From the NCBI GenBank assembly GCA_963667175.2, contig CAXXXF010000006.1, positions 576,001-640,000 of the forward strand: a DNA stretch of 64,000 nt, written 5' to 3'. Source of the DNA: Candidatus Latescibacterota bacterium (GTDB taxonomy: Bacteria; Latescibacterota; UBA2968; GCA-2709665). Positions 1,290 through 28,459 of the stretch are shown piece after piece. Below the pieces are notes generated by a model, which saw only the letters and a list, made by a program, of their open reading frames with translations, was not told the origin of the DNA and searched no databases. A program made the position numbers and the translations under genes. Numbering within the stretch: position 1 is the stretch's first letter; each line of letters begins with the position of its first letter.

Positions 1290-1292
1290 GCA

Positions 1293-7703: not shown

Positions 7704-7736
7704 GAAGTCGGGCAGGTTTGAAACCTGCCCGACTTC
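7704..7736. repeat. REP-like palindrome
   Basis: gaagtcgggcaggtttgaaacctgcccgacttc: 16-bp perfect arms; core shared with 8397-8425. Confidence 0.75.
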
Positions 7737-7987
7737 GTAAATAAGCGTGCAACGACCTGGATGGAAACAAACTTCCTGGAGTCGTACTGTACACGAAGGT
7801 TTCGAGGCGGGTTCAATCCCAACCCTGGCAGCCCGTTGAAAAAGCCCATCCGGACTGCCAATGGAACCGGAGCGTGCTGTGGCGGATTGTTTCCCGACGA
7901 TCCACCACTGGTGGAATCGGGCGAGGGGAAGCGGACGAAGAAGGCGTGGAAGGAGTGGCTAAACGGCCGGGGAGTGTCGGAACGGGA

Positions 7988-9723: not shown

Positions 9724-9737
9724 AATGAGAAGATACC

Positions 9738-11012: not shown

Positions 11013-11323
11013 TCCCAACGGACACCCGGGCGGTCATTTCGCGACGCTGGAAGCCGCGCTGGTGCTGGCGATGGTGATCCGTGAACCGGCTTCAACTCGT
11101 GCCGGGCCATCCCGTCGAACCTTCCATGGACGTGAAGACCAGGCCGCTCCACGGGATGCCGATGACGGTGCACCGGCGGGAAGCGGGTAGCGGGGAGACG
11201 GGAGAAGACGTCCTTGCCAGATTGGTTCTTCCTTTATGCCTCCGGTGAGAAATGAGACCGCACGGGGCGGACAATCTCTCCCGTCTAACGTCTACCCGTT
11301 CTACATGATCTTCATTACAATCC

Positions 11324-12028
11324 TCAAAGCGGGGCGAGACCGCAACGTCCCGGCCGCAGTCGCATGCCCGGCCGGATGGCCTGGAGTTCCCGGATCGACG
11401 AAATCGTGAAATCGGGCATCTCCGCGGCGCGCCGGGAGGTCTGAAACCGCGAAAACCCCTGCAAGACACGCATTGTCAGACAACCCTGAGACTTAGCAGG
11501 GCCGACGTCGTTATCGAGCCGGTCGCCAACCATCAATACGCCATCAGGGGCGCACCCCGCCCGAGAAATGGCCGCCTGGAATATCCTCGGATCGGGCTTG
11601 GAAAGGCCGAGTTCAGCGGAAGCGAGAACGATAGAAAAGTGGTCCCGAATGCCCCAATCGGAGAGCCGCTTCTCCGTACCTTCGGACTGGTTCGCAATGA
11701 CGCCAAGCCTGAACTTCGGCGAAAGCGTCTCGAGCATCTCCGGAACTCCGGGGTACAAGACTTCCCGTTCTTTCTCGTATCGACCGGCGCTCCCTGCGGC
11801 GCCACGCTGTTCCTCCGTCAGGTCGAGCCGCGCAAGCATGCCGCGAAACGGGCTCGGCGAAAAATCCGTCGCCGCCTGTTCGCACAATTCCATGAGTTCG
11901 TCGACTGACTGACGTTTGCCCAATCCGGCCAACCGATCACACACGCCCCTGAGACGCGCCCGGTGCGCCCGGGTTTCGTCCACCAGCGTCCAGCCCAGGT
12001 CCAGGAATATCCACTCGATGTTGGTCAT
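11324..12028 (-). CDS. HAD-family hydrolase
   Basis: FLDLGWTLVD, KPDPRIF, MVGDRLDND. Confidence 0.88.
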   Translation of the reverse strand: MTNIEWIFLDLGWTLVDETRAHRARLRGVCDRLAGLGKRQSVDELMELCEQAATDFSPSPFRGMLARLDLTEEQRGAAGSAGRYEKEREVLYPGVPEMLETLSPKFRLGVIANQSEGTEKRLSDWGIRDHFSIVLASAELGLSKPDPRIFQAAISRAGCAPDGVLMVGDRLDNDVGPAKSQGCLTMRVLQGFSRFQTSRRAAEMPDFTISSIRELQAIRPGMRLRPGRCGLAPL

Positions 12029-12152
12029 GGGGGTGACAGGATGATGAGAAAGCGGCGCGACGGAAGGACTCGAAAGGCGTCAGTGGCGGGCGTTCGGACT
12101 CAGTATCCAACTTTAGTACGAATTTAACGTCTTTGAGACGGGATTTGTGCCG

Positions 12153-13658
12153 TCACGCGCTAACGCCGTACTTTCTCATCCAGTTCGTGAACGTCTGGTA
12201 GCTGGGAAGCCCCACGAGCCGGGCGGCTCGCGATTTGTTTCCTCCTGTCTCTTCCAGCGCCCGCGCAAGGTAGTGCCGCGCGACCGAGGCCAGCAGGGAT
12301 TGGAGGCTAAGGCCATCGCCGAGGGGGCGTTCAAGTATCTTGGCGTCGACCGAACTTACCGCGGGTAGAAGCGCTTCTTTCACGTCTCTAGCATCTATGG
12401 CGGGGCCGGGCGTCCAAAGCGCGGCGCGATGCAGGGTATTCAGCAATTCGCGGACATTACCCGGCCATGGGTGGGCCAGGAGGAAATTTCTTGCGCCTGG
12501 AGAGAGTCTCTTGTGTTCGAAACCCGGCTGATCGGCATTTTCGTCGTTGACCTGCTCGAGCAATCGGTCCACAAGAAGGTTCAGGTCACCCGTTCGATCC
12601 CGGAGAGCAGGCAGCTTCAAATCCGCCACGGCCAGGCGATAGAAGAGATCCTCCCGGAATCTTCCCGTTGCGACCTCTCCCGCCAGGCTCCTATTCGTCG
12701 CGGCGATGATCCTCACGTCGACCTCGCGATGGGCCGTCGCGCCGACGGGCAGAACCATTCCATCTTGCAGGATACGAAGAAACTTTACCTGTGAGGACGG
12801 GGCAAGTTCGCCGACCTCGTCAAGGAACAGGGTTCCCTTGTTGGCTGCCTCGAAATATCCGATCCTGGCTGCGTCCGCACCCGTGAAGGCACCCTTCTCG
12901 TGGCCAAATAGCTCGGATTCCGCCAATTCGGCCGGTATCGCCCCGCAGTTGACCGCCATGAAAGGGTGATCCCGGCGAAGACTCGCCCGATGGATCGCCC
13001 TCGCAAGCAGTTCCTTTCCCGTACCGGACTCGCCCTGTATGAGCACAGGCACAGACCGCGGCGCCACACGTCGGGCTCTCGCAATTACGCGCGCCATGGC
13101 GTCGCTCTGGTAGATGATATCGGCGAATTCCGGCACCTCGGGTGGAAGTCCGGCGGTCGCCTTCTCAAGACGCTCGTCGGGACCCCTGAGGAGGTTGGGG
13201 ATAAACTCGGCCGAGATATCAAACGGGACGGAGACCGTACGAACGCCATGTTTTGCTGACGACTCAATCAGCTCAGCGGGAAAACGCGTTTTTGCAAGGA
13301 GAATCCAGACGGCCGCCATGGCCGGGGTGCCGGGACTCAGGTGAAAGGTCAGGTCAGCATCATCACCGTGATCGCCAAGCGCCGCCGACACGACCCGAAC
13401 CGCGGCCTCGTAGATCTCGGCAAACTCAGTCGGTCCGGATAACGGCTCGCGGCGAACCGTTATCTCGGCCCGAGATCGCGATCGTAGCCACTCAAGAAAC
13501 GTCGCTACCTCGTCCTCAGGATAGTCGCTCAGGAGTACGGCAGCGTCGTACGAATGCGCGTCAAGCGCCTGGGCGACCGGCCCGATGCCCGCGTCCGCCT
13601 CATCACCTGGCGCGCGTAGATCCGCATGGCCGATCCAGCTGATCAGAATATTGTTCAT
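12153..13658 (-). CDS. Sigma54-dependent activator with N-terminal RtcR/CARF-like domain
   Basis: N-terminal ILISWIG...D and FHLSPGTPAM (CARF/RtcR-like); GESGTGKE, GAFTGA, LFLDEV, WPGNVREL; C-terminal Fis HTH. Confidence 0.9.
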   Translation of the reverse strand: MNNILISWIGHADLRAPGDEADAGIGPVAQALDAHSYDAAVLLSDYPEDEVATFLEWLRSRSRAEITVRREPLSGPTEFAEIYEAAVRVVSAALGDHGDDADLTFHLSPGTPAMAAVWILLAKTRFPAELIESSAKHGVRTVSVPFDISAEFIPNLLRGPDERLEKATAGLPPEVPEFADIIYQSDAMARVIARARRVAPRSVPVLIQGESGTGKELLARAIHRASLRRDHPFMAVNCGAIPAELAESELFGHEKGAFTGADAARIGYFEAANKGTLFLDEVGELAPSSQVKFLRILQDGMVLPVGATAHREVDVRIIAATNRSLAGEVATGRFREDLFYRLAVADLKLPALRDRTGDLNLLVDRLLEQVNDENADQPGFEHKRLSPGARNFLLAHPWPGNVRELLNTLHRAALWTPGPAIDARDVKEALLPAVSSVDAKILERPLGDGLSLQSLLASVARHYLARALEETGGNKSRAARLVGLPSYQTFTNWMRKYGVSA

Positions 13659-13929: not shown

Positions 13930-14739
13930 TTATTCTGGTTTCGTCCCGACAGCGCCGAGGACGTGATTGGGTAGATGTTCGATCTTCGTATCTACCTCTC
14001 CAGAAAGGAGATAATCGAGAGGCATATCACCGTGCCCAAACGCCCATAGAAAGAGTTCGGCTCCCAATGCCGAAGGTTGACAAATGATACCGTCGCCAGG
14101 GACAGCGCTTGCTAACTCCTGCAGAGATTTTTTGTCACCAAACTGCCATCGGTTTTCAATGAGATTATCCGAAAAAAGGCCATGCCATATGTGCGTCATA
14201 ATCTGTGGATTACTCCATTCGGCCCGCGTGAATCCCATTGACTCAGTGTAATTTTGGTATGGAAGGTACACCTCCATTTCAGCTCGATTTTCAGATAGAC
14301 CAAACTGCTTTCCCTTATCGGAGAAGAGGTGCGCAACCGTCGCATAAAGGAGATAGTGCGTTCTGACTTGATACGCCGAAAGTTCATCAACAATCTTGAC
14401 TAGCCTGGCACCGCGGTCATCACGGCCAACCTCGGTTCTTGAAGAAGCTAATACCCCACCAAAATACTCCAACGCAACGGGATCATCAGCGTATGAGCCT
14501 TCATTTACAATTCCCTTTAACACCTTTGGTGGTACCCGACCGGGAGATTCGATCCTATCGCCAAGTTTTCCGGCAGCATTTGAAAAGATGTAACGGACAT
14601 TCTCAATTCGGCGCTGTGCAAATGACTTCAGTTCGCCGCCCAAATAATCTGCTGTAGGTCCGAGAAGCTTATTGGTAAGATCCTTCCCCAGATAGGCAGC
14701 AATTACACTTACGCCGACTGTAGTAATTGGTTCCGACAT
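13930..14739 (-). CDS. Abi-alpha/DUF4393-like protein
   Basis: LLGPTADYLG...VPPKVLKGIVNEGSYADD...YFGGVLASS...VKIVDELS pattern recalled for this family; lower GC. Confidence 0.55.
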   Translation of the reverse strand: MSEPITTVGVSVIAAYLGKDLTNKLLGPTADYLGGELKSFAQRRIENVRYIFSNAAGKLGDRIESPGRVPPKVLKGIVNEGSYADDPVALEYFGGVLASSRTEVGRDDRGARLVKIVDELSAYQVRTHYLLYATVAHLFSDKGKQFGLSENRAEMEVYLPYQNYTESMGFTRAEWSNPQIMTHIWHGLFSDNLIENRWQFGDKKSLQELASAVPGDGIICQPSALGAELFLWAFGHGDMPLDYLLSGEVDTKIEHLPNHVLGAVGTKPE

Positions 14740-14988
14740 GAGCGACTCCAGAATATTCACCGCAATGAAATTCTGCAAAGTACAACGCGGAAGATCGGTA
14801 GTAATCGTTAATTTGCCACGAATCGAGAATGGCGACTACAATCGTCTCGATACGATTTCGAACGTCCACAAAACCCGTCGGCGCAAGGTATTCCCTTTAC
14901 TATATCGATGGAGCGCCTCAAGTTCGCTTCGCGCACACTACTGTCATACGACGCTGTGTCATTGAAACATCCCAAGTTTGCGCGAAGA

Positions 14989-16590
14989 CTAAGGTCCTTT
15001 GTTGGGTTCTTCGTCTTCGACAGTTGCAGCATCGCTGGGCGCCGCTAGATCCCGCGCAAGGCTCTCGCATAGAGCGATGGCAGAGAGACAAAACGACGCT
15101 GCGAACGATGTTGACACGGTGATCCCTTGCCTATGCTGCCCAAAGTCACCAACAGATTGAATGTGGTCTGCGAGCAAATAGGTGGGTTTGGTCACGAAAC
15201 TTGCAACCGGGACGTTGTCCTCCGTGCCCGTGATGAGACGGAGAATGCTACACTGCTGCCCGCGTCGCTGAGGAAGAACGTCGAACTTTACGCCCACGAA
15301 CTTCCATTCTTGAGGAATAGACTCGCTGGATGGTAATTCGGCCTCCCAGATCAGATCCAGCGCATGGTTCGCGATGCTCCGAGCCCAAGTCGTGGATTGG
15401 GTCGGTTCAGGGTGCAGATCACGGATTGCCTTCTTCACGTAACCTAGAAAAATTGGATCCGACCCAGATACCTGATCAACACGGAGTTGGAGGAGGTCTC
15501 GAATGTTGTCATTAAATCGCTTTGCGTCACCAAATAGCCGCTTCAGATTCTCCACTTCGCTCGCTTGCTCTTGCGCATACTGACGCATAAAGCGACACGA
15601 CGATCTAAGCTTTCTCCCTGACGAAACAGCGAAGCCACGCTGCTTAAGGACCCGCATTCTCCCGTCCGGTATTTCGGATTGTGGAACGTCACGATTGGCG
15701 AGTTCTGCCAAGTCGGACCGAATCTCAACGTCGCAACCATCCCATAGAGCGTCCAGTAACCCATGTCTTTCTTCCAAAGTGGTCATTGCAACGTCGTCCA
15801 CGTGCGGTTTCGAAAGCGACGCCTCTTCGGGGGCTTCCAATAGTAGCCGCTCTGCAAGAGCAGCTGATAACGTCGGGACGCCCCCTGTCCAATTGGCGAA
15901 TTCCTTTCTGGCTGAGCCGTCAAGCTCGACGCCTCGCGATTCGAATGGCTTGAGGAAACCATCCCAGTCGTGTTCCTCGAAGCAACCGACATGCAGCGGC
16001 GTGTCGTAGAATATTTCCCAGAAATCCGACGTCCGGGACTCTTCGGTCTTGCAAAGCTCCCGGAGCCTGCTCCGGCTTCCCGTCACAACGCGGAGGCTGC
16101 TCATCTGGCAGAGCGTTCGCAGATTGTCCCATAGGTTTCTCGTTATGCGGCCTTCGGCGAGAAGGCGGTCGAACCCGTCGAGTACGGCTAGAATACGAAC
16201 TCCGCCGGTTTGCATTTCGCTAAAAACGAGATGTAGAAGATCGTGGAGGTCCTCGCCCTCCAAGTCCAAGTAATCTGCGAATTCAGGCTCTACCTTCTGC
16301 AGAACAATTTTGATGTGTTCCGTGAAACGTCGTCGGAACTCATCATCGGTCACCGGTGTGCCATGTCTGAGATCCCAATACAGCGACGTAGAGAAGTGCT
16401 CGCTTGGGCGCGCGAATTGCGTGGCAAGGTGATTCAGGAGGACGGACTTTCCAAACAAGGCAGGGCCGATGACGGACACGTGATCGGGGTTCGACTTGCT
16501 CAAGTGTCGGCATAACTCTTCAAATAGGCGTTCACGGCCGAGCATTGATGGGACATCAACGCCGAGGACTTGATAGGGAATGTCGCTCAT
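14989..16590 (-). CDS. STAND/AAA-like ATPase with degenerate Walker B and helical C-terminal (HEPN/DUF4145-like?) domain
   Basis: MLGRE, Walker A GPALFGKS, Walker B VLDGFD, WTGGVP; ATGA overlap with upstream gene. Confidence 0.75.
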   Translation of the reverse strand: MSDIPYQVLGVDVPSMLGRERLFEELCRHLSKSNPDHVSVIGPALFGKSVLLNHLATQFARPSEHFSTSLYWDLRHGTPVTDDEFRRRFTEHIKIVLQKVEPEFADYLDLEGEDLHDLLHLVFSEMQTGGVRILAVLDGFDRLLAEGRITRNLWDNLRTLCQMSSLRVVTGSRSRLRELCKTEESRTSDFWEIFYDTPLHVGCFEEHDWDGFLKPFESRGVELDGSARKEFANWTGGVPTLSAALAERLLLEAPEEASLSKPHVDDVAMTTLEERHGLLDALWDGCDVEIRSDLAELANRDVPQSEIPDGRMRVLKQRGFAVSSGRKLRSSCRFMRQYAQEQASEVENLKRLFGDAKRFNDNIRDLLQLRVDQVSGSDPIFLGYVKKAIRDLHPEPTQSTTWARSIANHALDLIWEAELPSSESIPQEWKFVGVKFDVLPQRRGQQCSILRLITGTEDNVPVASFVTKPTYLLADHIQSVGDFGQHRQGITVSTSFAASFCLSAIALCESLARDLAAPSDAATVEDEEPNKGP

Positions 16591-19500
16591 AGCTCATCCT
16601 CCGTCTTCTTGGAGCCGAAGCCCCGTCCAAGTCCAGCGCCGTAGCCATCCCCGTCTGAGAATCCGCCACCGTCGCCCTCGCCACGTCCGTAGCCATCGAC
16701 GATATCCGATTCTCCACGCTCCCGGACCGCCTGCCGGCGCTGATACTCGAAGTCGACGTTGTGTCCTATCCAGTTCGCCATCAAAGGAACCGCAAGCACG
16801 TAAGCAGAGCCTCGTGGCGACTCCCGGAGTTCAAGCAGTTCGAGTTCTCGCAGAAACTCGAGATCATCTCCCAGGCTCTCTTCACGCGGGATGGCAACGC
16901 CGCTCTCCTCGAGCTTCAGCTCAAGCAGGCTCAGCGTGATGGGATCCGGTCCATCCTCGAGTTTTCGACACAGCGCAAGAATAAAGCGCCTGCGCTCTGT
17001 GCGAGCGTAACCCCAGAGCGTGCGAAAGTGTTCGTTGTCCTTCGTCATATCTTCAGCACACGATTCTGCGGCGCCTACGGTCACCGTTCGTTCTTCGGTA
17101 TGGACGGCACGCTCGAATATCCGGTTGCACAGAGACTGGATCAAAAAGGGTTGTTGCGAACACAGGTCTACCACGCGGTCCCGCGCGTCGGGCACGTACG
17201 TGAGCCGCCCCTCCACCGGCCTTGTCACGAGCAGGCGGGCGTCCTCCAGCCGGATTTTGCTCACGGGGATCCGGTGACCGAACCCGAACAGCGCCGACCA
17301 GTATTCTTCCCGCAGTCTCTTGAGACGACGCGAGCCGGTCAGTATGGCTGAGAGATCCGGATACGCGTGCAGCATGTAGCGGATGTTCTCGGGTACCTGC
17401 GGACTTGTGATCCCCGAGTCGATGCCCTCCTGGAGTTTGTCGAACTCATCCAGCATCAGCAGAAGACGCCGCGGGCTGGCAGCCTCAAGAACCGCCTGTA
17501 TGTACAGCTCGAAGGCTTCGAATGGTCGCGGCCCGGCAAACGCGGTTGACAACGCCTTCGTGAACGCCACCTTGAAACGCTTGCTCGTGTCCGGGGGATC
17601 CATTTCCGGCAAACACACCCGGAGGCCCGCGTCGTCCATCGCCCACCCGACGTCGCGCGCCAGGAGTCTGAAGACCTCGTTGGTTTCCAGTCCGCGTTTG
17701 CTCTTGTGGCCCTGGCCGCCCTGGAGGGAGCAGTTCACGACGATCCAGCCCGGAAGCGCGTCGGGATCCTGAAGGTGTTTGAGAATCGACGTCTTTCCCG
17801 TCCGGCGGTTGCCTTCCAGAAGAATGACGTTCGCCCGGTCGCTTGTTGAGAATTGGCGCCGGATCCTATCGATGATATCCTGCCGGCCGTAGAACATCTC
17901 CTTTCGATCAATGGGGCTGCCCACGATGTACGGGCTTGCTCCGATATCGGGGACTTGGACGGCTTCGGAGGTGGAACGCACGTCTACCGCGAGCGGGAGT
18001 TCACCGGACACAGGCCGGCCGTCCATGCGTTCGGCTCGCCATCGGAGCATGAACGGGTAGAGACCGGTTGCGACGTCCGCCGGAATTCGCGCCGTAAAGC
18101 TGAACGGTCCATTCTCGGCAAGATAATCGACACGCCCCTCGCCAATCGACGGAAACGTCGACGCCCGGACGTTTCGCAGTGCAAGCGGCGAATGGTTCAT
18201 TAAACGGACCCGAACCTCGTTTTCCGCCCCCGCTACGACCGCGTCCGGTTCAATGCCCGGCGCCAATGTGACGTCATCCAATATTGCGTCCAACTCGGCC
18301 CGAACCAGCCGGGAGATCCTCCTGGTGAACGTTATCGCATGAGCGAATGTCTGCAGCAGGTTCTTTCTGACTGAAGGATCAGCGGAACTGCCCGAACTCC
18401 CCCACTCTCGTGTCGCATGTGCACCTGCCAAATGGGCATTTCCTATGCCTAAGATAACCGAATGGACTTTCTCAAGACGGTTCCAGGCTCCGTCTAGGAG
18501 CGCCATGCGCCCCGATCCGGGCGGCACGTGGTTCAGACCATGCAGTGACTTCAAGGCTTCCGCGAGATCCTTCAGCCATCTGTTAAATTGACTCACGTCG
18601 ACAATACACGAGCGAACGACCTGTTTTCGGAGCGACGAGGCGGCGTGAGCAATGCGTTCCAGGAGCTTGACCCGGTCCTCGGCCCGTACCGGTCTCCACA
18701 GCCTCCGTAGTTCGGGAGATCCATTCAGCCATGACCCAACCGGGTCTTTGCTGTTTGTGACCAGGATGCGTACGAGCGCGGCAAAGGGATCTTCTCTTTC
18801 GTCACCCATCTGCTTTAATAGTTGTTCCTGTATCGAAACCTGCGGCGCCGGTACGCGAAGGTTTTGTAGCGTTCGAGCAGGGAGATGCCGGATCGTTTCG
18901 CCTCGGGCGTGACCACGGATCCACTGTTGATATGCATCAGACGCAAGGACGCTCTTCAGATAAACCGGGGAGATTGATTTCCCGGGGCGTATCACGGTGA
19001 GACTCCTCGTCGCCACGGCGTCGACAATGCCGCTCTGCTGGGATACGACCGCCAACGTTCCGACGTTGCCGGACGTGGTGATGAGAACGTCGCCCGCGCG
19101 CAACCGGTGCTTTGACCGCACTCGCCTGGTACAGTTCTTCGTCAGGAAGAGAGACGGAGATTGTACTCCGTTGCGATTCACGTCCGCTGCGCGCACAAGG
19201 CCGGCGAATACCGATGGATCGTTCCGTCGCGAGGTGGTACCAGACTTGTCGTACGATACACCTGTAAAGATATCAGCCACCTCGTTGAGTGGGTGTACCG
19301 GGACCCCGGCGTCGCTCCCGAGAACCCGAAGGGAAATTGACAGGATTTTCTCATCGGTTCGCTTTGCAATGAGATCACCGCCCCTGTCGGCGAGTTCTTT
19401 GATGGGGGTCTCCCAGAGGTCCTCAATCGGGTGTTTCTGTTGGAGGTCGTCTGGTTCACCGGTCCGGAATTCCGCCGTGATCGCGCGCGCCGCCTCGACG

Positions 19501-20699
19501 GCCATGTCGCGGCTGAGCTCGTCCTCCGGTCGAACAGACGGCGAATCTTCGATCCGCATGAACCGAACGGCCTCCTTCGCTTTTTCGCGGCGGAAGAGTG
19601 CCAGGCTCATTTTAATCCCCGTGACTGGAAGGAAGGCCCCGTCCGGAAGCGACACCACGCCTTCCACACAGTAATCGGTGAGGAGTTCCTTGCGGACCTT
19701 CTCGTCGGGACCCGTCCGATAGAGAGCGCCATCAGGAAGCGCGACGACGGCGCGACCGCCCGGGCGAAGCGAAGCCATCGCGTGCTGGAGAAACAGCGTC
19801 TCGATGTGCGTTGATGGAACCGGGAAATGGGTTGCGCTCTGCGCCCGCGCGTGTCGGCCCCATGGCGGTACTGCCACGACGCAGTCGAATCCTTCCGAGG
19901 ACCGCTCTCCGGCCGGGGGCCGATCCAGGGCGTCGCCGAGTTCGAGACCGGGTTGATCCATGCCCGCCAGGACGACGCGCGCAAGCCCGATGACGTGCGC
20001 GTACGGACTGATTTCCACCCCGTACACGCTTTGTTGAAGCGACTCGGGCATCCGCGTTGCGTTTTCGAGAAGTCGGCCGGCCACCGTGGCGAGCAGCCCA
20101 CCGGCCCCGAAGCACGGATCGTAGACGCGCTCTCCCGGACGAGGATCCAGAAGTTCAGCCATCAGCTCAACCACGCGTTTGGGCGTGGTGTGGTCTCCCG
20201 GGATCTCGCCCGTTTCAGCGGCGTTTGCCACAAGGGCCCCAAGCGCGTTCCCTGCCGAATGCCTGCCGGTATCGGATTCCAAATCGAAAGGCCTGCCCCA
20301 CTCCAGAAGTGTCTCGATCACCTCAGGAGATTCCCGGACCAGGTTTTCCACGATGGGCGCAAGCAGCTTCAAGTACTTACCGGGACCTCGATCGGGCGCG
20401 TTACGCAACGCAGGCAGAACCCCCCCGCCAAGCGCGTCCACGAGTTCGCCGCCGCGAAGATCGCGCCAGGAAGACCAATGCAGACCGCGAGGTAGGGCAG
20501 ACGGACAGTCGTGACTCTTGAGAGCGTCCGCGGGTTCCTGTTCGGCATCCTTGCGCTCGGCCCAACGCAGCAGAAACAGGGCGGCCGCAAAGGACGCGAT
20601 GGCCGACTCGGGCTGACGGTCGCCAGCCTCCTGCCCGGCGATCTCATCGAGGCGGGTCCGGAGTTCGGACACGCGAGATGTGAGTTCAGATTGATTCAT
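16587..20699 (-). CDS. Fusion of HsdM-like N6-methyltransferase, HsdS-like TRD and STAND ATPase (~1370 aa)
   Basis: HTTP, YDPCFGAGGLL (motif I), FDCVVAVPPW (motif IV), TRD GDVLIT...G.TIRHL, SPYIVGSP..FYGR, GNRRTGKT, MLDEFD; likely start MNQSEL overlaps PLD stop (ATGA). Confidence 0.85.
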   Translation of the reverse strand: MNQSELTSRVSELRTRLDEIAGQEAGDRQPESAIASFAAALFLLRWAERKDAEQEPADALKSHDCPSALPRGLHWSSWRDLRGGELVDALGGGVLPALRNAPDRGPGKYLKLLAPIVENLVRESPEVIETLLEWGRPFDLESDTGRHSAGNALGALVANAAETGEIPGDHTTPKRVVELMAELLDPRPGERVYDPCFGAGGLLATVAGRLLENATRMPESLQQSVYGVEISPYAHVIGLARVVLAGMDQPGLELGDALDRPPAGERSSEGFDCVVAVPPWGRHARAQSATHFPVPSTHIETLFLQHAMASLRPGGRAVVALPDGALYRTGPDEKVRKELLTDYCVEGVVSLPDGAFLPVTGIKMSLALFRREKAKEAVRFMRIEDSPSVRPEDELSRDMAVEAARAITAEFRTGEPDDLQQKHPIEDLWETPIKELADRGGDLIAKRTDEKILSISLRVLGSDAGVPVHPLNEVADIFTGVSYDKSGTTSRRNDPSVFAGLVRAADVNRNGVQSPSLFLTKNCTRRVRSKHRLRAGDVLITTSGNVGTLAVVSQQSGIVDAVATRSLTVIRPGKSISPVYLKSVLASDAYQQWIRGHARGETIRHLPARTLQNLRVPAPQVSIQEQLLKQMGDEREDPFAALVRILVTNSKDPVGSWLNGSPELRRLWRPVRAEDRVKLLERIAHAASSLRKQVVRSCIVDVSQFNRWLKDLAEALKSLHGLNHVPPGSGRMALLDGAWNRLEKVHSVILGIGNAHLAGAHATREWGSSGSSADPSVRKNLLQTFAHAITFTRRISRLVRAELDAILDDVTLAPGIEPDAVVAGAENEVRVRLMNHSPLALRNVRASTFPSIGEGRVDYLAENGPFSFTARIPADVATGLYPFMLRWRAERMDGRPVSGELPLAVDVRSTSEAVQVPDIGASPYIVGSPIDRKEMFYGRQDIIDRIRRQFSTSDRANVILLEGNRRTGKTSILKHLQDPDALPGWIVVNCSLQGGQGHKSKRGLETNEVFRLLARDVGWAMDDAGLRVCLPEMDPPDTSKRFKVAFTKALSTAFAGPRPFEAFELYIQAVLEAASPRRLLLMLDEFDKLQEGIDSGITSPQVPENIRYMLHAYPDLSAILTGSRRLKRLREEYWSALFGFGHRIPVSKIRLEDARLLVTRPVEGRLTYVPDARDRVVDLCSQQPFLIQSLCNRIFERAVHTEERTVTVGAAESCAEDMTKDNEHFRTLWGYARTERRRFILALCRKLEDGPDPITLSLLELKLEESGVAIPREESLGDDLEFLRELELLELRESPRGSAYVLAVPLMANWIGHNVDFEYQRRQAVRERGESDIVDGYGRGEGDGGGFSDGDGYGAGLGRGFGSKKTEDEL

Positions 20700-22300
20700 C
20701 TGTCGACGCCCTCCCTTGCGGTCATTCGGACAACGATCGAGGCCGCGCCAGCTTCCTCGGCAACCCGGCGGGCGACCTGGATCTCTTCCGGAGATCGGAC
20801 CGCCACCACGAGCTTCCCGTCCGGTTCCTTGAATACGGGAGGCTCGTACGGGGCTGGCTTCGTCTTCTTGCCGGCCGCTGTCCGCGAGGCTGCCTTCGCC
20901 CTGGAATCTCTTGCACCGGTCCGCTCGGGCATCTCCGGCCCGCCGCCAGCAGTCCGCATGATTTCCTTCGCCTTCGGGTGCAGATCCGGTGCTCGAACGA
21001 GCCTTCGGCACTCAAGCTCGTGAGCGGGTTGCGGCAGTCCATTGATACGCGGGAGATCCGGGGCTGGCGCTTTCAGTACGTGCGCGGACGCGGCAGTTAC
21101 GGATCCAAGATCTACCGTGAGCCGGGGCTTGACCTCGAGGTCGATCAGATTTCCTCCGTGCCAGACGCGCACGTCTCCGGCCACCTCTCCCAACGCAGGC
21201 GCCGGAAGGAGTTCCCACGCCGCCTGACTCGACCATCGTTCGAGGCGGATCCGAAGCTCGTCCGCCCGCTCGCCTTCAAGCCGCAAGCCCAATTCGAAGC
21301 CGCCGTCGAGCCCATGCTTCTCCAGATTCGCCGACATGACCAGTCCCCTGCCCGAGTCGGACCACAACGCCTTGGCGTGCAGCCACTTGAAGCCGAGCAC
21401 CCGGGCGCCCGCCTCCGCGAGCGCGGCGAGGGCGGGCATGGCGCGGAGACGGGTGCGCGCCAGCACCGTGAGCGAAACGCCCTCGCGGGCACGCGCACAG
21501 AGACGCTCGACCACCGGATGGCCGGCGTCCCATCCGTAGCTCGAAACGATGAGTTCCCCGGAGGCGCCGTCGATGAGATCGACGGCCTCCTCACGCAGTT
21601 GAGTGACTGAAGACGTGGTTGCCAGGACATGCGGGGACGGCGCCGGATGATCGACGCGGCCGAGGGGCTTCACCGCCCGAAAATTTCCAAGTTCCACCAT
21701 TTCGTGCTCTGCGCCTTCCCATATTGCCCATCGAACGAGCTCTGCAGCTTCTTTCACTTCCTTCGGGGTCAGCTCGACGGCCAACTCCTCGTTCCGCTCC
21801 AGCGCTTCGCGAGTGAGGTTCGCCGTCAGCAATAGCCCCGCAGGGCGCTCGTCGGGGTCGACCAGTACCAGCTTGGCGTGGAAGTGCGGCGCCGAACGGA
21901 TGAGCGCCCAACCGCCAAGGCGACTCAGCACGTCGTTGTGTTCCGCGAGCACACGCCGTTCAAACTCCCCGTCCCCGGGTTCGTCACCAAGACGGGCTTC
22001 CGAGGCGAGCATGACGTACACCCGCACGCCCCTCCCGGCGGCTTCGAGGATCGCGGCTTCGACGTCCCGGTCGGCCAGCAGGAAGCTGGAGACGACGACT
22101 TTCTTTCTTGCGGAGGCCAGGAGTTTGGCGATTCGATCCTTCAGCTCCCCGCCCTTTCCCGATATATGGACTTCCCTGCCCGTTTCCGGCTGGCGGATTG
22201 TCTCCCTCTGGCGGGAACTCCACGTGGGTGGCAGTCGATAGTTGCGCTGGTTAATAATAGATGTGACCTGCTTTGTCCAGTTCTTCATGGTGATCTCCAT
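20696..22300 (-). CDS. Phospholipase D-family nuclease with two HKD motifs
   Basis: HAKLVLVD...TANL and HAKALWSD...SANL; TAATG coupling at 22298-22302 (alternative start 22288). Confidence 0.88.
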   Translation of the reverse strand: MEITMKNWTKQVTSIINQRNYRLPPTWSSRQRETIRQPETGREVHISGKGGELKDRIAKLLASARKKVVVSSFLLADRDVEAAILEAAGRGVRVYVMLASEARLGDEPGDGEFERRVLAEHNDVLSRLGGWALIRSAPHFHAKLVLVDPDERPAGLLLTANLTREALERNEELAVELTPKEVKEAAELVRWAIWEGAEHEMVELGNFRAVKPLGRVDHPAPSPHVLATTSSVTQLREEAVDLIDGASGELIVSSYGWDAGHPVVERLCARAREGVSLTVLARTRLRAMPALAALAEAGARVLGFKWLHAKALWSDSGRGLVMSANLEKHGLDGGFELGLRLEGERADELRIRLERWSSQAAWELLPAPALGEVAGDVRVWHGGNLIDLEVKPRLTVDLGSVTAASAHVLKAPAPDLPRINGLPQPAHELECRRLVRAPDLHPKAKEIMRTAGGGPEMPERTGARDSRAKAASRTAAGKKTKPAPYEPPVFKEPDGKLVVAVRSPEEIQVARRVAEEAGAASIVVRMTAREGVDR

Positions 22301-23412
22301 TACAGTCTCCAATCTTCGGCGGCGGCGAGACGCCAGAACAAAGGATCGGGACGTTCTGGCGTCCCGTTGCAGACCTCGTCGAAAAGTTCCGTTCGAGTTG
22401 GGAGTTCTATCTCGTACTGTTCGAAGGGGTCAGCCGCCTCACCGCGCCATGCTGAATAGCGCTCAGAGGTCGCATAGTCCCGGATCCGTGCGCGCAGGCG
22501 CCACTTCGCCCACGACTGTGCCTCGGCCTCAGACGGGGCGGTGATCGGTACGTCCGGAACGTTAAGCGGCTCGAACTTTCCGTAGAAGCCCAGGTACGGT
22601 GACTCGAATTCCAGGACGCGGGACATGGCCTCCCGCTCGGGGTCGTTGGTGTCGTCGAAGCTCACGCACAGCACCTGCCGTTTTTCGTCCCACTGCTCCA
22701 ATAGACCCCCGTTTTCGAGCAACGTGCGCCATACCCGGTCGGGCGACGTGGATGGCGCCTCCAGTTCGGTCGCGACCTTCTTCCCTTCCAGGATTCCGGT
22801 GAGCTGCAATCGCCCGTCGCCGAAGTTCCAGCGGAGACGAAGGAATCCATTGGCGTCAACTGCCTCGGCTTTGTCCTCAAGGTCATCAACGCGAATCACG
22901 GCGCCGCGTCCGGCGGCCGGCTTGATGGGCGTCCCCTCGACGTTTCGTATCCAAGTCGGTAGTGCGTCGTGTCGGCGCTCTTCCGTGCGCTGCCGCTTGT
23001 TGCGGAGCTCGTCGTGCGCGGTGGGCTCCTTCCACGGTTCGATTCGCAAGATGGGCGACGGCAGCAGAGGGTCGACACTCGCCCAGATCGTCCAGGTTCC
23101 GCACTCGGGAACGAGCACCTTTTCAGTGTCGATGGCCGTCTCCCCGGCTTCGGTGAGTTCGAAAGCGCGACCGCGCTTCTCGAGAAGCTTGTAGGCGACT
23201 CCAATATCCAGGAGCCGCTCAGCGACGACGCGCCGCGACCGGGACTCGAAGAGCAGATGCTCGGCCACGTCGCGCGCGCCCGTTCCGCCGTTCTCGCGAA
23301 TCCGCAGGAGGACGGGCATGAGTTCGGGCCGTTTCTCAGCTTTGGCGACCTGCCCGACGACGCGCCAGCACCTGACTTCCACGGGTCGTTCCAGAATGAT
23401 GTTCCTGTTCAT
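22300..23412 (-). CDS. Hypothetical protein with N-terminal winged-helix-like segment
   Basis: ARDVAEHLL...VAERLLDIG...FELTEAG pattern; coupled at both ends. Confidence 0.7.
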   Translation of the reverse strand: MNRNIILERPVEVRCWRVVGQVAKAEKRPELMPVLLRIRENGGTGARDVAEHLLFESRSRRVVAERLLDIGVAYKLLEKRGRAFELTEAGETAIDTEKVLVPECGTWTIWASVDPLLPSPILRIEPWKEPTAHDELRNKRQRTEERRHDALPTWIRNVEGTPIKPAAGRGAVIRVDDLEDKAEAVDANGFLRLRWNFGDGRLQLTGILEGKKVATELEAPSTSPDRVWRTLLENGGLLEQWDEKRQVLCVSFDDTNDPEREAMSRVLEFESPYLGFYGKFEPLNVPDVPITAPSEAEAQSWAKWRLRARIRDYATSERYSAWRGEAADPFEQYEIELPTRTELFDEVCNGTPERPDPLFWRLAAAEDWRL

Positions 23413-26045
23413 TGTTGCCTCCGGTTGATGTCCTTCCCCCACCGTTTGCTCTCAGCCAATGCCTTCAGCAAGGTACCCCTTGCCCGACGCATCGCCTGCC
23501 GGTCGCCAATGACGACGCGCTGATAGCGCGCTCTGGTCAGGGCGACGTTCAGGCGGTTCGGGCTCTCCAGGAAGCTCGTCGGGTGGGGCCGGGCGAAACT
23601 GATCAGCACGACGTCGGCCTCGTGCCCCTGGAAGCGGTCAACGGTGCACAGCTCGATGCGGAGGTAGGGCCGTTCCTTCTGACCCCGTGTAAAGTGGCGC
23701 ATTGCGTGGCGCTGCCCGGTCCATTTATGGAGATAGCCCCGCACCTTCCGTTCCTGTCCCCGGTAGAAGGTCAGGACGGCCGCCTCCCAGGTACGGTCGT
23801 CATTCAGCGGGTTCGCACGCGCCCACGCATCGAAGTGGCGGAGTTCTTTTACAACCGATCGAGCCTCCCTTTGGTTGCAGTTGAGGCGCCGGTCGAAGGC
23901 GCCACGAACGTCGCGCCAGACGGCATGGTAGGCGTAGCGGGGGTAGCTCCACGCGCGTTCGTCCTTCATCGATTCCGGGGTTTGGAGCGCCTTGCCGCCG
24001 TAGACGTGTTTATGGGATAACGCCGCAATCTCGGGATGCATGCGGTGCTGCGTGCTCAGGAGCACGTGACGCGGATCGAGCACGAAATCCGGCAGACCGT
24101 CCGACAGCGCGCTTCCGGTGCGCTGGTTCCCGTTGCGCTCGAACCCACGATGAAGCGATTCGAGAACGGACGGAAGGGCGACGCGGCGTACGCGATCGAT
24201 CTCCAGCCAGACCTCTTCCGGATCTGCGCCGGTCTCAGCGTTGGGGAGTAACTCTTTCACTTCCTGACGCAGGCGTTCCGCGGTGGTGGTCCGGTTGTCA
24301 CTCGAATCGTCCGAATCCTCTGCGAAACGCTGCTCGTACAACCTCGCGAGGCGCCAACCGACTTCGGACGCCCACTCCGGCGCCTCTTCGCCGTCTTGTC
24401 CGGCAAGGCGAAGCCACGCATCCGCGCGACGATGCGCGACGTGCAGAGTGTTCTCCGGCCCGCGCACCATCGCGAGGTCAAGCGGCAGTTCGTCCACCCT
24501 CCGCTCCAGCGCGGTAGCTGTACCGATAGCGACGTCCGCGGTCGAGAGCCCGTGGTCATCGAGGTCCGCGTCGGCAAGCGTTACGTCCCGAGCGGCGCAC
24601 TGCTCGCGGTACCCCTGGCGGGTACGTTCGTCCTCTGCGACGACGGCGGCGGTGCGCCGTTTATGGCGGCTGGGACGCCCCGCGTTGAAGGCGTCAATGC
24701 AGGCGTCCCGGATCCCGGGGTCGCGAAGACACGTCTCAATGTTCACCGCCATCGCCTCGTCATCGACGTACGGGGAGAGTTGCTTCGGGTCGCCGACGAT
24801 GATCCAGCGCTTCGCCAGCAACGCGGGGACCAGGAATTCCTGGAATGGCGTCTTGGAGGCTTCGTCGACGATGAGCACGTCGAAGGTGGTGCTGGCGTGG
24901 CCGCCCGACTTGCCCCGGTGCTGTTTAATGTCCGGATGCTGGAGGATCCCGATTGTGGTCCCGCACACGAGGTTGGCGGCGTCCAGAACCATGCGCTCGA
25001 TAACCGAGGGGCCCGGGCGCAAGGCTTCAAGAAAGGCTTCCTGCGACGGCGTGAGAGACCTTCGCCCCTGAAGCTCCCGGAGCAGGCGCTCCCTCTCGGT
25101 TCGAACGAAACGGTCGAACTGCCATGGGCGCGCCTTCTCGGAGACGTTCCGCCGGTCGCCGATGCGGACCGGGATCACCAGGTCGCGGTGTGGGTTGGAC
25201 TCGTCCATCAGGCGCTCCAGCACGTTGTCGACCGCGACATGCGTCGACGCCGAGAGAAGCACCCGCTTCCCGCGCTTCGCAAGCTGGAGCACCAGTTCGC
25301 CGATCGCCGTCGTCTTTCCCGAACCGGGCGGCCCTTCGAGAAACGCGAAATCCGGCGTTCCGAGGGCCTGCTCAACGAATTCGCGTTGCTCGCCGGTTCC
25401 GGGACGACTCTGGTCCGTCAGCACCATCCAGTCCGGGTCATCAATGCACTCCGCATCGACAATCGGCCATAAAGCGCTGTCGCGATCTTCGAAGAGCCGC
25501 AGCAAAGGGCGGTGAAAGGACGAAGGGGTGTTCTGAAGCGCCTGTAGAGCATCGATCTGGCACTTGATTTGCCACGTGTTGGGCCGGAGCAGGAGCTCGG
25601 TCAGGTCCGGAACTCGCTCGAGCAACAGTTGGTTGGTATTGGGGTCCCGGTCGATTACCGCAATCTTGTGCTGCGGACCGAAGCCCAGTCGGTCGTTACG
25701 ACGGGCATCCGGCCCTTCGGTTTCGGCGGAGGGCTCGGCCTCGTAGACCTCCTTCACGTTTTCGTCCAGGAAGGTCCGAAATGTGGCCTCCGGCTCATCG
25801 CGACGGCCCGGCGGCTCGGTCAGCTCGATCCAAGTTCCATCGGTCTCTGCCCGCCCGGCGCCGTTGCCGCCGTTGGCCGGCGGTTCGCCGGGGCGCCACG
25901 CGAGCCGTTTCACGGCAGCGTCGCTGTTCAGGTATTCCCGAGTCCGCCTCAGGAATTCGTAGAATATCCGGAGCCCATAGAAGGTGTTCTTCATCAGGAC
26001 GTCCGGGCGGTGAACCCCGAGGTTCCAGTAGTGCAGTAGCGCCAT
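23409..26045 (-). CDS. UPF1/DNA2-like SF1B helicase
   Basis: GPPGSGKTT, VDEAS, VGDPKQL, QHRMHP, TVDRFQGHE, NRLNVALTRAR. Confidence 0.92.
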   Translation of the reverse strand: MALLHYWNLGVHRPDVLMKNTFYGLRIFYEFLRRTREYLNSDAAVKRLAWRPGEPPANGGNGAGRAETDGTWIELTEPPGRRDEPEATFRTFLDENVKEVYEAEPSAETEGPDARRNDRLGFGPQHKIAVIDRDPNTNQLLLERVPDLTELLLRPNTWQIKCQIDALQALQNTPSSFHRPLLRLFEDRDSALWPIVDAECIDDPDWMVLTDQSRPGTGEQREFVEQALGTPDFAFLEGPPGSGKTTAIGELVLQLAKRGKRVLLSASTHVAVDNVLERLMDESNPHRDLVIPVRIGDRRNVSEKARPWQFDRFVRTERERLLRELQGRRSLTPSQEAFLEALRPGPSVIERMVLDAANLVCGTTIGILQHPDIKQHRGKSGGHASTTFDVLIVDEASKTPFQEFLVPALLAKRWIIVGDPKQLSPYVDDEAMAVNIETCLRDPGIRDACIDAFNAGRPSRHKRRTAAVVAEDERTRQGYREQCAARDVTLADADLDDHGLSTADVAIGTATALERRVDELPLDLAMVRGPENTLHVAHRRADAWLRLAGQDGEEAPEWASEVGWRLARLYEQRFAEDSDDSSDNRTTTAERLRQEVKELLPNAETGADPEEVWLEIDRVRRVALPSVLESLHRGFERNGNQRTGSALSDGLPDFVLDPRHVLLSTQHRMHPEIAALSHKHVYGGKALQTPESMKDERAWSYPRYAYHAVWRDVRGAFDRRLNCNQREARSVVKELRHFDAWARANPLNDDRTWEAAVLTFYRGQERKVRGYLHKWTGQRHAMRHFTRGQKERPYLRIELCTVDRFQGHEADVVLISFARPHPTSFLESPNRLNVALTRARYQRVVIGDRQAMRRARGTLLKALAESKRWGKDINRRQQ

Positions 26046-26092
26046 CTTCTTCTTACGTCCTTTCCTTTGCTATTGAGATTATGAGACGTCAA

Positions 26093-26419
26093 TCAGCCCA
26101 TCGGCCGCCGGTTACGCCGACGACCTTGCGGGCGCAGCCCTCGGAAGTCTCGATTCCGGTACGTGGTCAGGACGTCTCCTTCTGAACTGCATACGACGTG
26201 AATTCCCTCGAAGTCAGCCAATTCGATGCCTTTACGCAGGAACCTCGTGACTTCCTTGCGGCCGATGACGTAGATTTTCGCGCCGCGCACGTAGACCACA
26301 CGACCATATTTTATCACCGTCGAAAGGGCAGTTTCGGAAATCCTCCGGGCCATCATCCGCATACGGGCATGGGTCGTGATGACATGGCTCCGGCGCTTGT
26401 CTGCACAATCGTAGCTCAT
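26093..26419 (-). CDS. DUF4258-like small basic protein (putative toxin-fold RNase)
   Basis: ITTHARMRMMARRIS...VIKYG...VLTTYRN; AAGGAG RBS. Confidence 0.7.
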   Translation of the reverse strand: MSYDCADKRRSHVITTHARMRMMARRISETALSTVIKYGRVVYVRGAKIYVIGRKEVTRFLRKGIELADFEGIHVVCSSEGDVLTTYRNRDFRGLRPQGRRRNRRPMG

Positions 26420-26582
26420 CAGTTCGCTCCTTTCGTCGGCGGTCAATTCCGCTTGACTCCGGATCTGATCAGGCCACTTCCGTGCCAACGTGACTCGATC
26501 CGTTCCCGGCAAGCTCAATCTTCATTCCTGCTGATTGCTCCATCCAAATTGCATATAACTTTATGGTGGCATTTGGGGGAAG

Positions 26583-26599
26583 CGCAAACCGCGTGCCAA
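26583..26599 (-). promoter_or_regulatory. Sigma54 (-24/-12) promoter
   Basis: Minus strand TTGGCACGCGGTTTGCG = TGGCACG-N4-TTGC, exact GG-N10-GC spacing, pointing into the operon. Confidence 0.8.
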
Positions 26600-27608: not shown

Positions 27609-28454
27609 CTACGTGACAAGATCAAACGGCAAGTCTGCAATATCTCGGAGACGATTGCCGATAATCATCGTATCCAAAGAATCCTGGACGGCTTCGTTTC
27701 GACTCTCTTTGGTGACCTTCACAAGTTCATTAAGGCAGAAGTGGTAGACACAATCGATATCGCCGGTTCCCAATGCGAGAGACGCGATTCGGGTTGGCAT
27801 TGGTTCGGCCGTCACCACGGCGATATGGGGGGTGTGCCCTTTACGGTTACGTATCAGGTTCAAGCCTTCCGTTCGGGCATTCTGCGACCGATCACTTCGA
27901 AGAGTCAATTTGCACGAAATGCTCGCGTGCAGTATTGGAGACGCTTCTTCCTGATTTGTCCGACGTAGCGGCGTCAAGTACGGGATGCCACCCTCGTGTA
28001 CGATTACCCAATGCTTGTTTATCGCCTCGTCTGCAACAGGTGTGCGCGCAACGATGACCTCGGGCTTGACGACATAATCACCAAGGGCCGTCTGAGCCAC
28101 CTTATTGGCTTGGATCAGTTCATTCAGGGTAGCCAAATGTCGGTATTGCACGAATTCCGATATATCGCCGTGCACAGAATAAATCCAATCCGCTGGACGA
28201 AGATGTTCGAGGACTTTCATGGTTGATTTAATGAATTCCCGTACTGCCGCTTCAAACTTGCTCCCGGCGGTTTGACCGCTTATTCTGGTGCTCCCAAGCG
28301 AATAGCCAAATTCCTCAATGATCCCGCGCGCCAACGAACAACTGAGATTGCTGCTGGTGTCGGCAATGCTCGGGGTTCGATCTCTTTTCAAGAATATCGC
28401 TCCAGAACAGACTTGCCGTTGAAATTGCTCGCGCAGTTTTGCGATTTCAGCCAT
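27609..28454 (-). CDS. Type II restriction endonuclease, NgoMIV family
   Basis: GQTAGSKFE, LHASISCKLTLRSDRSQNARTEGLNLIRNRKG, VTAEPMPTRIASLALGTGDIDCVYH. Confidence 0.9.
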   Translation of the reverse strand: MAEIAKLREQFQRQVCSGAIFLKRDRTPSIADTSSNLSCSLARGIIEEFGYSLGSTRISGQTAGSKFEAAVREFIKSTMKVLEHLRPADWIYSVHGDISEFVQYRHLATLNELIQANKVAQTALGDYVVKPEVIVARTPVADEAINKHWVIVHEGGIPYLTPLRRTNQEEASPILHASISCKLTLRSDRSQNARTEGLNLIRNRKGHTPHIAVVTAEPMPTRIASLALGTGDIDCVYHFCLNELVKVTKESRNEAVQDSLDTMIIGNRLRDIADLPFDLVT

Positions 28455-28459
28455 CAGAT

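Follow-up and report, generated by a model that had tools for sequence, protein, structure and literature searches.

An HsdM-like domain without its catalytic asparagine, fused to an ORC/STAND-like ATPase, as a predicted sensor in a proposed two-ATPase defence module

Introduction

We analysed a 64,000-nucleotide stretch of a Candidatus Latescibacterota genome (assembly GCA_963667175.2, contig CAXXXF010000006.1, positions 576,001 to 640,000), hereafter the window, which carries a fusion gene, c0, whose product joins an HsdM-like methylase module to an ATPase. The gene of a partner ATPase, c1, follows directly, and an RtcR-like activator gene, c2, lies nearby. The module is closest to the core of type I restriction-modification (R-M) systems (HsdM2-HsdS1; PDB 5YBB), with which it shares the N-terminal helical domain, the gamma-class N6-adenine methylase fold, the S-adenosylmethionine (SAM) motifs and an HsdS-type target recognition domain (TRD) with long helices. 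Unlike that core, c0 has VPPW as motif IV, holds M and one TRD in a single chain and is fused to an ATPase part of ~740 residues; moreover, the window has no HsdR and no separate HsdS, and Pfam and PADLOC models found neither in the operon.

According to the sections of the preprint used here (bioRxiv 10.1101/2023.04.06.535777), the Ronin system consists of HsdM and HsdS without HsdR, together with the toxin RonA, and is triggered by ArdA, Aop1 and Ocr independently of methylase activity. As far as those sections go, Ronin and PrrC/EcoprrI resemble c0 in having an R-M-derived or R-M-embedded part that does not need methylase activity and is proposed to report an attack on restriction. In many genomes c0-c1 is likewise part of a type I R-M operon, in which it comes last. 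However, the HsdM and HsdS of Ronin are separate proteins with competent catalysis, its toxin is a membrane protein of 61 aa, and PrrC joins an ABC-type ATPase to an anticodon nuclease, whereas in c0-c1 the predicted sensor is fused to an ORC/STAND-like ATPase, a second such ATPase is present and there is no conserved small toxin gene.

With STAND/NLR-like proteins (Avs) and the ORC/Cdc6 clade (BREX BrxC), c0 has in common an AAA+ core, a lid, a winged helix and a sensor domain joined to an NTPase switch. BREX reportedly also places a SAM-dependent methylase-TRD reader beside an ORC-clade ATPase (in part after PMC12839542); PglZ and BrxL were not found in the c0-c1 operon. In contrast to Avs and other STAND proteins, the putative sensor of c0 is N-terminal and a pseudo-enzyme instead of TPR or WD repeats, no nuclease or protease is fused to it, and two paralogous ATPases occur as a pair.

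A link between RtcR-like bacterial enhancer-binding proteins and R-M was noted in Front Genet 2014 (PMC4012209, main text in part), and the portion of the CoCoNuT paper used here (eLife 2024, PMC11090510) describes defence superoperons that are led by RtcR and have type I R-M immediately behind the CARF gene. In that portion the order is the same as in the relatives of c0, running in one direction from the RtcR-like activator through type I R-M to a last module, which in the relatives of c0 is c0-c1 and not the McrBC-derived CoCoNuT. We found no published description of the fusion or of the c0-c1 pair; the supplementary neighbourhood tables of PMC4012209 and PMC11090510 may name it. The NCBIfam equivalogs of the methylation-associated defence system (MADS) do not apply to c0, with MAD2 at 75.8 bits (cut-off 720) and MAD5 at 31.9 bits (cut-off 400), and PADLOC 2.0 assigned to c0 and c1 only type I M and S models and weak mad2, mad5 and mad8 matches. 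The pair would combine two known kinds of system, the R-M-derived sensor and NTPase-switch defence.

The HsdM-like module of c0 lacks the catalytic asparagine

A first-pass annotation of the window, made from the letters only, had read an intact SAM motif, DPCFGAGG, and the string FDCVVAVPPW in c0, and had concluded that the HsdM-like domain has lost its catalytic Asn. Both strings are found on the reverse complement, the second at 19860-19889 (residues 271-280) and the first at the position given in Table 1. Pfam N6_Mtase (PF02384) matched c0 with 137.9 bits (cut-off 20.4), and the closest solved structure to the methylase was the HsdM 5YBB (3.6e-32). In this alignment 'fdvvvtnppfg' of 5YBB lies over 'fdcvvavppwg' of c0, so that Val277 falls on the Asn of NPPF and occupies the catalytic position; the conclusion was thus correct. 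The remaining methylase motifs were found as TTP (171-173), GVEI, D256 and ETLFLQH.

The best PADLOC model for c0 was the type I methyltransferase PDLC03021 (2.2e-56), followed by Specificity_I models at residues ~470-630. TIGR00497, the NCBIfam hsdM equivalog, scored 41 bits against a cut-off of 242.75. When compared with an active HsdM, c0 has the fold and motif I, and motif IV departs from (N/D/S)PP(F/Y/W). In amino-methyltransferases the side chain at the first position of motif IV hydrogen-bonds the target amino group, which Val or Ala cannot do. The methylase of c0 has type I R-M ancestry and keeps its SAM motifs and Pro-Pro-Trp base pocket, with Val at the place of the catalytic Asn. 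We also observed that chain A of PDB 7EEW ('type I R-M methyltransferase subunit', 638 residues) has 'SGVPFG' aligned where NPPF is expected and is another HsdM-like protein without this Asn; a literature search found no paper on 7EEW.

Occurrence of the substitution in the family

Close homologs of c0 were sought in a collection of 5.8 billion proteins. Among 7984 candidates scored, 255 proteins reached E <= 1e-5, and the best 120 of them had 42-81% identity to c0 and were nearly all full length. We aligned the query with the 119 best full-length homologs (120 sequences). The Asn column of this alignment held V in 92, A in 22, C in two, and I, T and N in one each, with one gap. P279 was kept in 119/120 and W280 in 112/120, and all of the 117 sequences aligned at motif I had D-P-x-F-G and, in full, Y-D-P-C-F-G. 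A private mutation or sequencing error, which NPP in all close homologs would have indicated, is ruled out for Val277: Asn occurred in 1 of the 120 sequences, and other residues are common to homologs down to 42% identity.

Two wider samples were used for the family as a whole. The first comprised 193 full-length proteins from the homologs and the related loci described below, including 75 copies from species genomes. The second was obtained with a profile of the C-terminal 740 residues of c0, which is independent of the methylase; against 1.84 billion cluster representatives (50%-identity clusters) it gave 1617 at E <= 1e-30, and motif IV was counted in the 116 full-length sequences among the best 150. 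The Asn column was V109, A42, N28, C3, D2, H2, Q2, S2, I1 and T1 over the 193 proteins; N27, A20, V19, D2, H2, Q2, S2 and C1 over the 75 species-genome copies; and N43, D13, S3, V23, A13, C6, T4, H3, I3 plus five others over the 116 representatives. The replacement of N/D/S thus holds for the clade of c0 but not for the whole family, where N/D/S stands in 31/75 and 59/116 copies, respectively.

The complete (N/D/S)PP(F/Y/W) motif was found in only 43/116 representatives, since many have also lost the aromatic residue or a proline; eroded forms in the family include NPPI/V/L/M, QPPV, VVPS and VSPW. The cofactor site is better kept. DPCFG was exact in 84/116 representatives, and over the 193 full-length members the motif II acid was E in 182 and D in six, and motif III was D in 139 and N in 42.

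A FastTree phylogeny of 76 rows, built from the C-terminal 730 residues of c0 only and rooted at the midpoint, separated a clade of 29 sequences with N/D, part of which lack the aromatic residue, from a clade of 47 that includes the window copy and has V, A, C, H or S and two N. At the first position of motif IV the tree requires at least six changes of state, from N/D/S to another residue or back, and 17 changes of residue. Asn would be the ancestral state, because all HsdM relatives carry it. As a picture drawn from sequences, the catalytic motif appears to have eroded repeatedly in a family that keeps its cofactor site.

This family is large and widespread, with the 1617 cluster representatives mentioned above and 12 phyla among 80 loci. 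Its members are named 'N-6 DNA methylase' or 'type I restriction enzyme M protein' in databases, names that are probably wrong for the clade of c0. Two loci drew our attention for other reasons. A Spirochaetia genome has two tandem fusion genes (4128-7964 and 9593-13573 of locus L056), each with its partner; their motif IV is VPPV and APPW. In a Gemmatimonadales relative (L042:10001-16117; 70% identity over part) the match is spread over 6.1 kb, and clustering gave no intact long open reading frame (ORF); it is possibly a disrupted copy.

The fusion protein and its partner ATPase

The ORF of c0 is uninterrupted on the minus strand from 16587 to 21011 if counted from the first GTG (1474 codons). 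Translation probably begins at the ATG at 20699; this codon and the TGA stop codon of the upstream PLD gene overlap as ATGA. From this start the protein has the layout given in Table 1, with a linker between the methylase and the TRD. NCBIfam S-subunit models scored far under their own cut-offs on the TRD, and precomputed Pfam matches list Methylase_S on many c0 homologs. Family alignments show purifying selection in every domain.

An AlphaFold (AF2) model of residues 631-1370, based on 49 homologs, had a predicted local distance difference test score (pLDDT) of 85.9. Foldseek matched its ATPase to 7JGR (6.5e-10), 2QEN (7.9e-10; target TM-score 0.72) and 2FNA (TM-score 0.71); ORC/Cdc6 proteins and the archaeal ATPases 2QEN and 2FNA were thus on top, with CED-4 and plant NRC proteins as further matches. 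Pfam AAA_16 reached 28.3 bits on c0, under its cut-off of 32.6, so the ORC/Cdc6/STAND label comes from the fold search; on the relative from Variovorax (L073) nSTAND1 scored 19.0 bits, under 27.1. The layout, the Walker motifs and the fold search agree on a methylase-TRD fused to a STAND/ORC-type ATPase, which the first-pass annotation had proposed. Residues 631-925 found no usable match in the Protein Atlas.

The start codon of c1 overlaps the stop codon of c0 as ATGA. In 78 of the 80 loci a c1 homolog lies directly downstream of c0, and the two misses are contig ends; the neighbourhood is therefore obligate. The AF2 model of c1 (pLDDT 92.4) matched ORC/Cdc6, 2QEN, Avs3, CED-4 and NRC proteins with its first ~400 residues, and the Protein Atlas placed c1 in generic STAND/AAA clusters only. 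The C-terminal helical domain has the invariant residues R370, E418 and H486. A HEPN RNase in this domain found no support from Pfam, whose HEPN models matched 0/49 members at E <= 0.1, or from a profile of the domain, which among PDB sequences did not reach an E under 0.04 and retrieved no HEPN protein; an Arg five residues before H486 was present in only 8/49 members when the R-x4-6-H motif was checked.

A complex prediction of c0 residues 915-1335 with c1 gave an ipSAE of 0.81, compared with 0.00 for the best of three controls. This mark was attained by 58/80 solved complexes and 2/110 mismatched pairs; runs shared at least 94% of contacts, and partner pLDDT was at least 82. The model supports binding of c0 and c1 to each other, although likeness to solved AAA+ heteromers such as ORC may contribute to the score.

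Related loci, activator and promoter-like sites

In contigs from one genome per species we found 156 relatives, of which 80 loci from 12 phyla were kept. Clustering of naive ORFs gave the recurrent order c2, a sigma-54-type motif, HsdR (~765 aa), HsdM (~500 aa), HsdS (~400 aa), c0 and c1, and a short form with c2, the motif, c0 and c1. Pfam and PADLOC identified the genes of the Variovorax locus as RtcR_PspF2 (2e-199), REase_I (3.6e-98), MTase_I (3e-141) and Specificity_I (8.8e-67). The top model was PDLC03021 for both the operon HsdM (3e-141) and c0 (2.2e-56). The motif IV of the operon HsdM was NPPY in 41 of 49 proteins, NPPF in two and APPW in two, and four gave no match to the regular expression. 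A complete type I R-M stands directly before c0 in about half of the loci; counted only in the 62 loci with at least 7 kb upstream of c0, it did so in 40/62, and 20/62 were short forms without R-M, which occur in many phyla. Across the family, c0-c1 is thus linked to an RtcR-like CARF sigma-54 activator and a sigma-54-type promoter, often with a complete type I R-M.

In 34 complete loci, median pairwise identity was 69.8% for HsdR, 69.5% for HsdM and 24.4% for HsdS. For the parts of c0 it was 38.9% (methylase), 36.5% (TRD), 25.1% (middle region) and 52.0% (ATPase), and for c1 33.4%. A shared specificity of the c0 TRD and the neighbouring HsdS was considered and is unsupported, as the HsdS of the same locus was the best match in 1/34 loci, at 20-33% identity. 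The R-M beside c0-c1 is unusually uniform across phyla, with HsdR and HsdM at ~70% and HsdS at 24% median identity, which suggests that it is one horizontally spreading, RtcR-controlled type I lineage.

Copies with N/D/S were found 22 times with and two times without R-M, and copies with other residues 18 times with and 20 times without; loci without R-M are almost confined to the non-canonical clade. This raw table is suggestive of a tie between loss of the catalytic residue and loss of R-M. However, the tree holds only four independent pairs, so the counts carry no significance and describe a pattern, not a test.

The genome of the window has at least eight other strong N6_Mtase genes, and none of them belongs to the operon-type HsdM family, whose best match in this genome is c0's own domain (37% identity, 2.1e-45). 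The putative sensor module of c0, a relative of the usual operon partner, therefore works without that partner here.

The activator c2 is RtcR-like in all three parts, the CARF-like, sigma-54 AAA+ and helix-turn-helix domains. PADLOC RtcR_PspF2--CARF_AAA_HTH matched residues 3-499 (7.5e-198), and Pfam matched Sigma54_activat (2.4e-68) and HTH_8. Homologs of c2 adjoin c0 in 47/81 of the sources clustered, and rpoN is present in the genome of the window. A TGG[CT]A-N7-TGC[AT] motif lies within -40 to +250 of the c2 stop codon in 33/45 loci; elsewhere on the same strand it occurs at 0.039 per kb. In the window, TGGCACGCGGTTTGCG is the sole match within one mismatch of TGGCACG-N4-TTGCW and stands upstream of the whole gene string. 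A second, poorer site, TGGCACGGAAGTGGCC, with two mismatches, follows 95 bases downstream in the same gap before the first gene.

Proposed function and alternatives

The sequence evidence makes it most likely that c0 is an anti-phage sensor rather than a working methylase. We judge the chances about even that c0-c1 is a two-ATPase, alarm-induced module of defence against mobile elements on which the methylase-TRD sits as a non-catalytic sensor domain. We hypothesize that the operon would stay off until an alarm reaches the CARF activator; if RtcR is a guide, this alarm would be RNA ends that arise from RNA damage. The dead methylase-TRD would then bind DNA with SAM as cofactor and might probe a flipped adenine without methylating it, as a reader and not a writer. 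This reading of DNA would drive ATP-dependent assembly of a c0-c1 hetero-oligomer on the DNA. The invader could then be excluded or the cell arrested. This might be the work of nucleases encoded alongside c0-c1, which would be HsdR in most relatives and the helicase/PLD set in the window, or of the C-terminal domain that is conserved in c1. The specific step of DNA reading is a tentative part of this mechanism.

Several findings weigh against it. About half of the wider family keeps N/D/S, so the family may have started with an active methylase and perhaps often has one still, and the reader role is a deduction from the conserved features. With the midpoint root, the direction of change is derived only from the Asn of the HsdM relatives. 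Domain, profile and fold searches recognised no nuclease or other effector domain in c0 or c1, no conserved effector gene follows c1 across the related loci, and the short form c2-c0-c1 occurs without any other conserved gene, including any conserved small gene beside c0-c1; genes in these loci were called as naive ORFs. Relative to the rest of c0, the TRD shows no hypervariability (36.5% identity, against 38.9% for the methylase and 24.4% for HsdS). Being neither hypervariable nor matched to HsdS, it would be equally compatible with a protein ligand and with a single fixed DNA site. The gene order of the window is unusual in that c2 lies downstream of c0-c1. Finally, the TGGCACGCGGTTTGCG site is not significant alone, as 0.6 such sites are expected by chance in 64 kb and at least one was found in 44/100 shuffles; it gains weight from its position on the right strand before the first gene and from the same motif behind the activator in 33/45 loci.

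A protein ligand is central to the strongest alternative, which the first-pass annotation had raised together with SAM depletion and DNA methylation state as possible signals. Here the dead HsdM-TRD would be an integrated decoy, a bait for anti-restriction proteins such as the DNA mimics Ocr and ArdA or an Stp-like peptide. Binding of the bait would release the ATPase switch and lead, with c1, to abortive infection, guarding type I R-M in cis in most relatives and in trans here. We regard this as possible but unlikely. Type I R-M directly precedes c0 in 40/62 loci, the module of c0 derives from the same HsdM family as its operon partner, catalysis is dispensable in the family, and at least eight other strong N6_Mtase genes of the genome are candidates for guarding in trans. 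The TRD does not follow the specificity of HsdS and evolves like the rest of c0, and c0 evolves much faster than the operon HsdM and HsdR (~39% against ~70% median identity), as expected in an arms race. Ronin and PrrC/EcoprrI are precedents, at least in the sections of bioRxiv 10.1101/2023.04.06.535777 used here.

A bait, however, would not need the conserved SAM loop, motifs II and III and the Pro-Pro-Trp pocket, unless SAM is required for its shape. The strong conservation of these features means that real DNA engagement fits at least as well as a pure protein bait. In addition, members with an intact NPPW exist in the same operon type, and a sentinel has to be in place at the moment the inhibitor arrives, for which an operon that is off until an alarm is an odd home. 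In its fullest form, the decoy would be a catalytically dead copy of the type I HsdM-TRD core that phage and plasmid anti-restriction proteins attack, carried in the same chain as an NLR/ORC-like ATPase, and a DNA mimic bound to it would set off a two-ATPase switch towards death or arrest. Plant NLRs with integrated decoy domains follow this principle, which would here operate from the last position of an alarm-induced type I R-M operon; we consider this form rather unlikely.

It is improbable that c0 has no defence function of its own and is a regulator or accessory of type I R-M (restriction alleviation, assembly control) or a remnant decaying after loss of its R-M partner. The missing cognate HsdR, HsdM and HsdS and the atypical gene order in the window would fit this, but the 4110-base frame is intact, the Walker motifs are invariant, start and stop codons are coupled, purifying selection acts on every domain across the family, and the short form without R-M is frequent (20/62 loci) and has been conserved in many phyla.

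Phage enzymes that degrade SAM are known, and they defeat type I R-M and BREX. The retained pocket of c0 could therefore report the SAM level, and a phage SAM lyase or SAM depletion would empty it and switch the ATPase on. Conservation of the residues of motifs I, II and III, but not of the catalytic residue, agrees with such a sensor; yet the TRD, the Pro-Pro-Trp pocket and motifs V-VIII are conserved as well and would be unneeded for sensing a small molecule only, and we hold this to be quite improbable. Very improbable is a still-active methyltransferase with a non-canonical motif IV or another substrate, for although the whole fold and cofactor site are intact and close to half of the family has N/D/S, Val or Ala cannot make the required hydrogen bond, the NCBIfam hsdM score is far under its cut-off, and the loss of the aromatic residue and the prolines in other members points to relaxed catalytic constraint and not to new chemistry.

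If c0 is the predicted non-catalytic sensor, evolution would have converted a DNA methyltransferase into a sensor that is coupled to an NTPase switch, and c0-c1 would be a new output module for RtcR-type, RNA-damage-induced defence operons. The natural N, V and A variants at one residue of proteins that are otherwise conserved offer a handle on a non-methylating role of the methylase pocket in R-M and BREX-like systems. For annotation, methylation motifs should not be predicted from such genes.

Other genes in the window

Upstream of c0 lies a string of four genes that begins behind the promoter-like site (Table 1). For the gene at 22300..23442, the likelier start is the ATG that overlaps the helicase stop codon as ATGA. 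Three junctions in the operon are ATGA overlaps, and the fourth, between this gene and the PLD gene, overlaps by 13 bases. The ORF between c1 and c2 may not be a gene.

Table 1. Coordinates of c0 and its parts, of the genes linked to it and of other features, counted from the first nucleotide of the window
Feature	Window position	Residues of c0	Strand	Length	Remarks
Fusion gene c0	16590..20699		-	1370 aa	4110-base frame
HsdM-like N-terminal helices and methylase		1-~420	-		
Motif I, DPCFGAGG	20097..20120	194-201	-		SAM-binding loop
Motif IV, VAVPPW	19860..19877	275-280	-		Val277 (19869-19871) at the place of the catalytic Asn
Single HsdS-type TRD	18810..19289	~471-630	-		PADLOC Specificity_I 2.7e-14 to 4.2e-11; mad5 3.6e-15
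Helical bundle/coiled coil with two long helices		~638-808			AlphaFold model
Beta-sandwich		~812-908			AlphaFold model
ORC/Cdc6/STAND-like AAA+ ATPase with lid and winged helix		~920-1335			
Walker A, GNRRTGKTS	17787..17813	963-971	-		invariant or nearly so in family alignments
Walker B, LDEFD	17439-17453	1083-1087	-		invariant or nearly so in family alignments
Gly/Asp-rich disordered tail	16590-16700	~1334-1370	-		pLDDT < 50; not conserved in family consensus
Partner gene c1	14989..16590		-	533 aa	ORC/Cdc6/STAND-like AAA+ ATPase, winged helix, C-terminal helical domain
RtcR-like activator gene c2	12153..13658		-	501 aa	CARF-like N-terminal domain, sigma-54 AAA+ domain, Fis-type helix-turn-helix
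Sigma-54-type promoter-like site TGGCACGCGGTTTGCG	26583..26598		-		-24 GG / -12 GC
Second sigma-54-like site TGGCACGGAAGTGGCC	26472-26487		-		
DUF4258 gene	26093..26419		-	108 aa	Pfam 2e-07, 31.6 bits (cut-off 25); first gene behind promoter-like site
SF1 (UPF1/MkoA-like) helicase gene	23409..26045		-	878 aa	Pfam AAA_11 5.6e-32, AAA_12 6.8e-30; PADLOC MkoA 1.1e-82
Gene of no recognised family	22300..23442		-	380 aa from first start	no Pfam, PADLOC or NCBIfam match
Two-domain PLD/HKD nuclease-like gene	20696..22312		-	538 aa	PLDc_2 9.1e-19 (two stretches); PADLOC DrmC 1.1e-20, MkoB 8.2e-13
ORF between c1 and c2	13930..14778		-	282 aa	no family; not conserved in other loci
Type II R-M pair	27609-29896		-		NgoMIV-family endonuclease (Pfam 1.2e-93) and N4/N6 methylase (PF01555); directly upstream of operon

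The helicase, the 380-aa gene and the PLD gene were considered as conserved partners of c0 and are ruled out as such. With tblastn at E <= 1e-5, none of them, nor the 282-aa ORF, was found beside c0 in any of the 80 loci, and at E <= 1e-20 the PLD gene was found in 0/21 further genomes from the same taxonomic family. The three genes also contrast in G+C content with c0-c1 (63-65% against 51-60%). The set at 20696-26419 is a separate Mokosh-like module, joined here to c0-c1 by translational coupling, and it occupies the place where relatives carry HsdR, HsdM and HsdS. The adjacent type II R-M, the Mokosh/DISARM-like helicase and PLD genes, the absence of the PLD gene from all 21 family genomes and the mosaic G+C content mark these surroundings as a defence island.

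Farther away, the region 54001-58000, which has a low G+C content (47-48%, against ~60% around it) and lies next to a tRNA-Pro gene (55739-55815), is possibly a further island.

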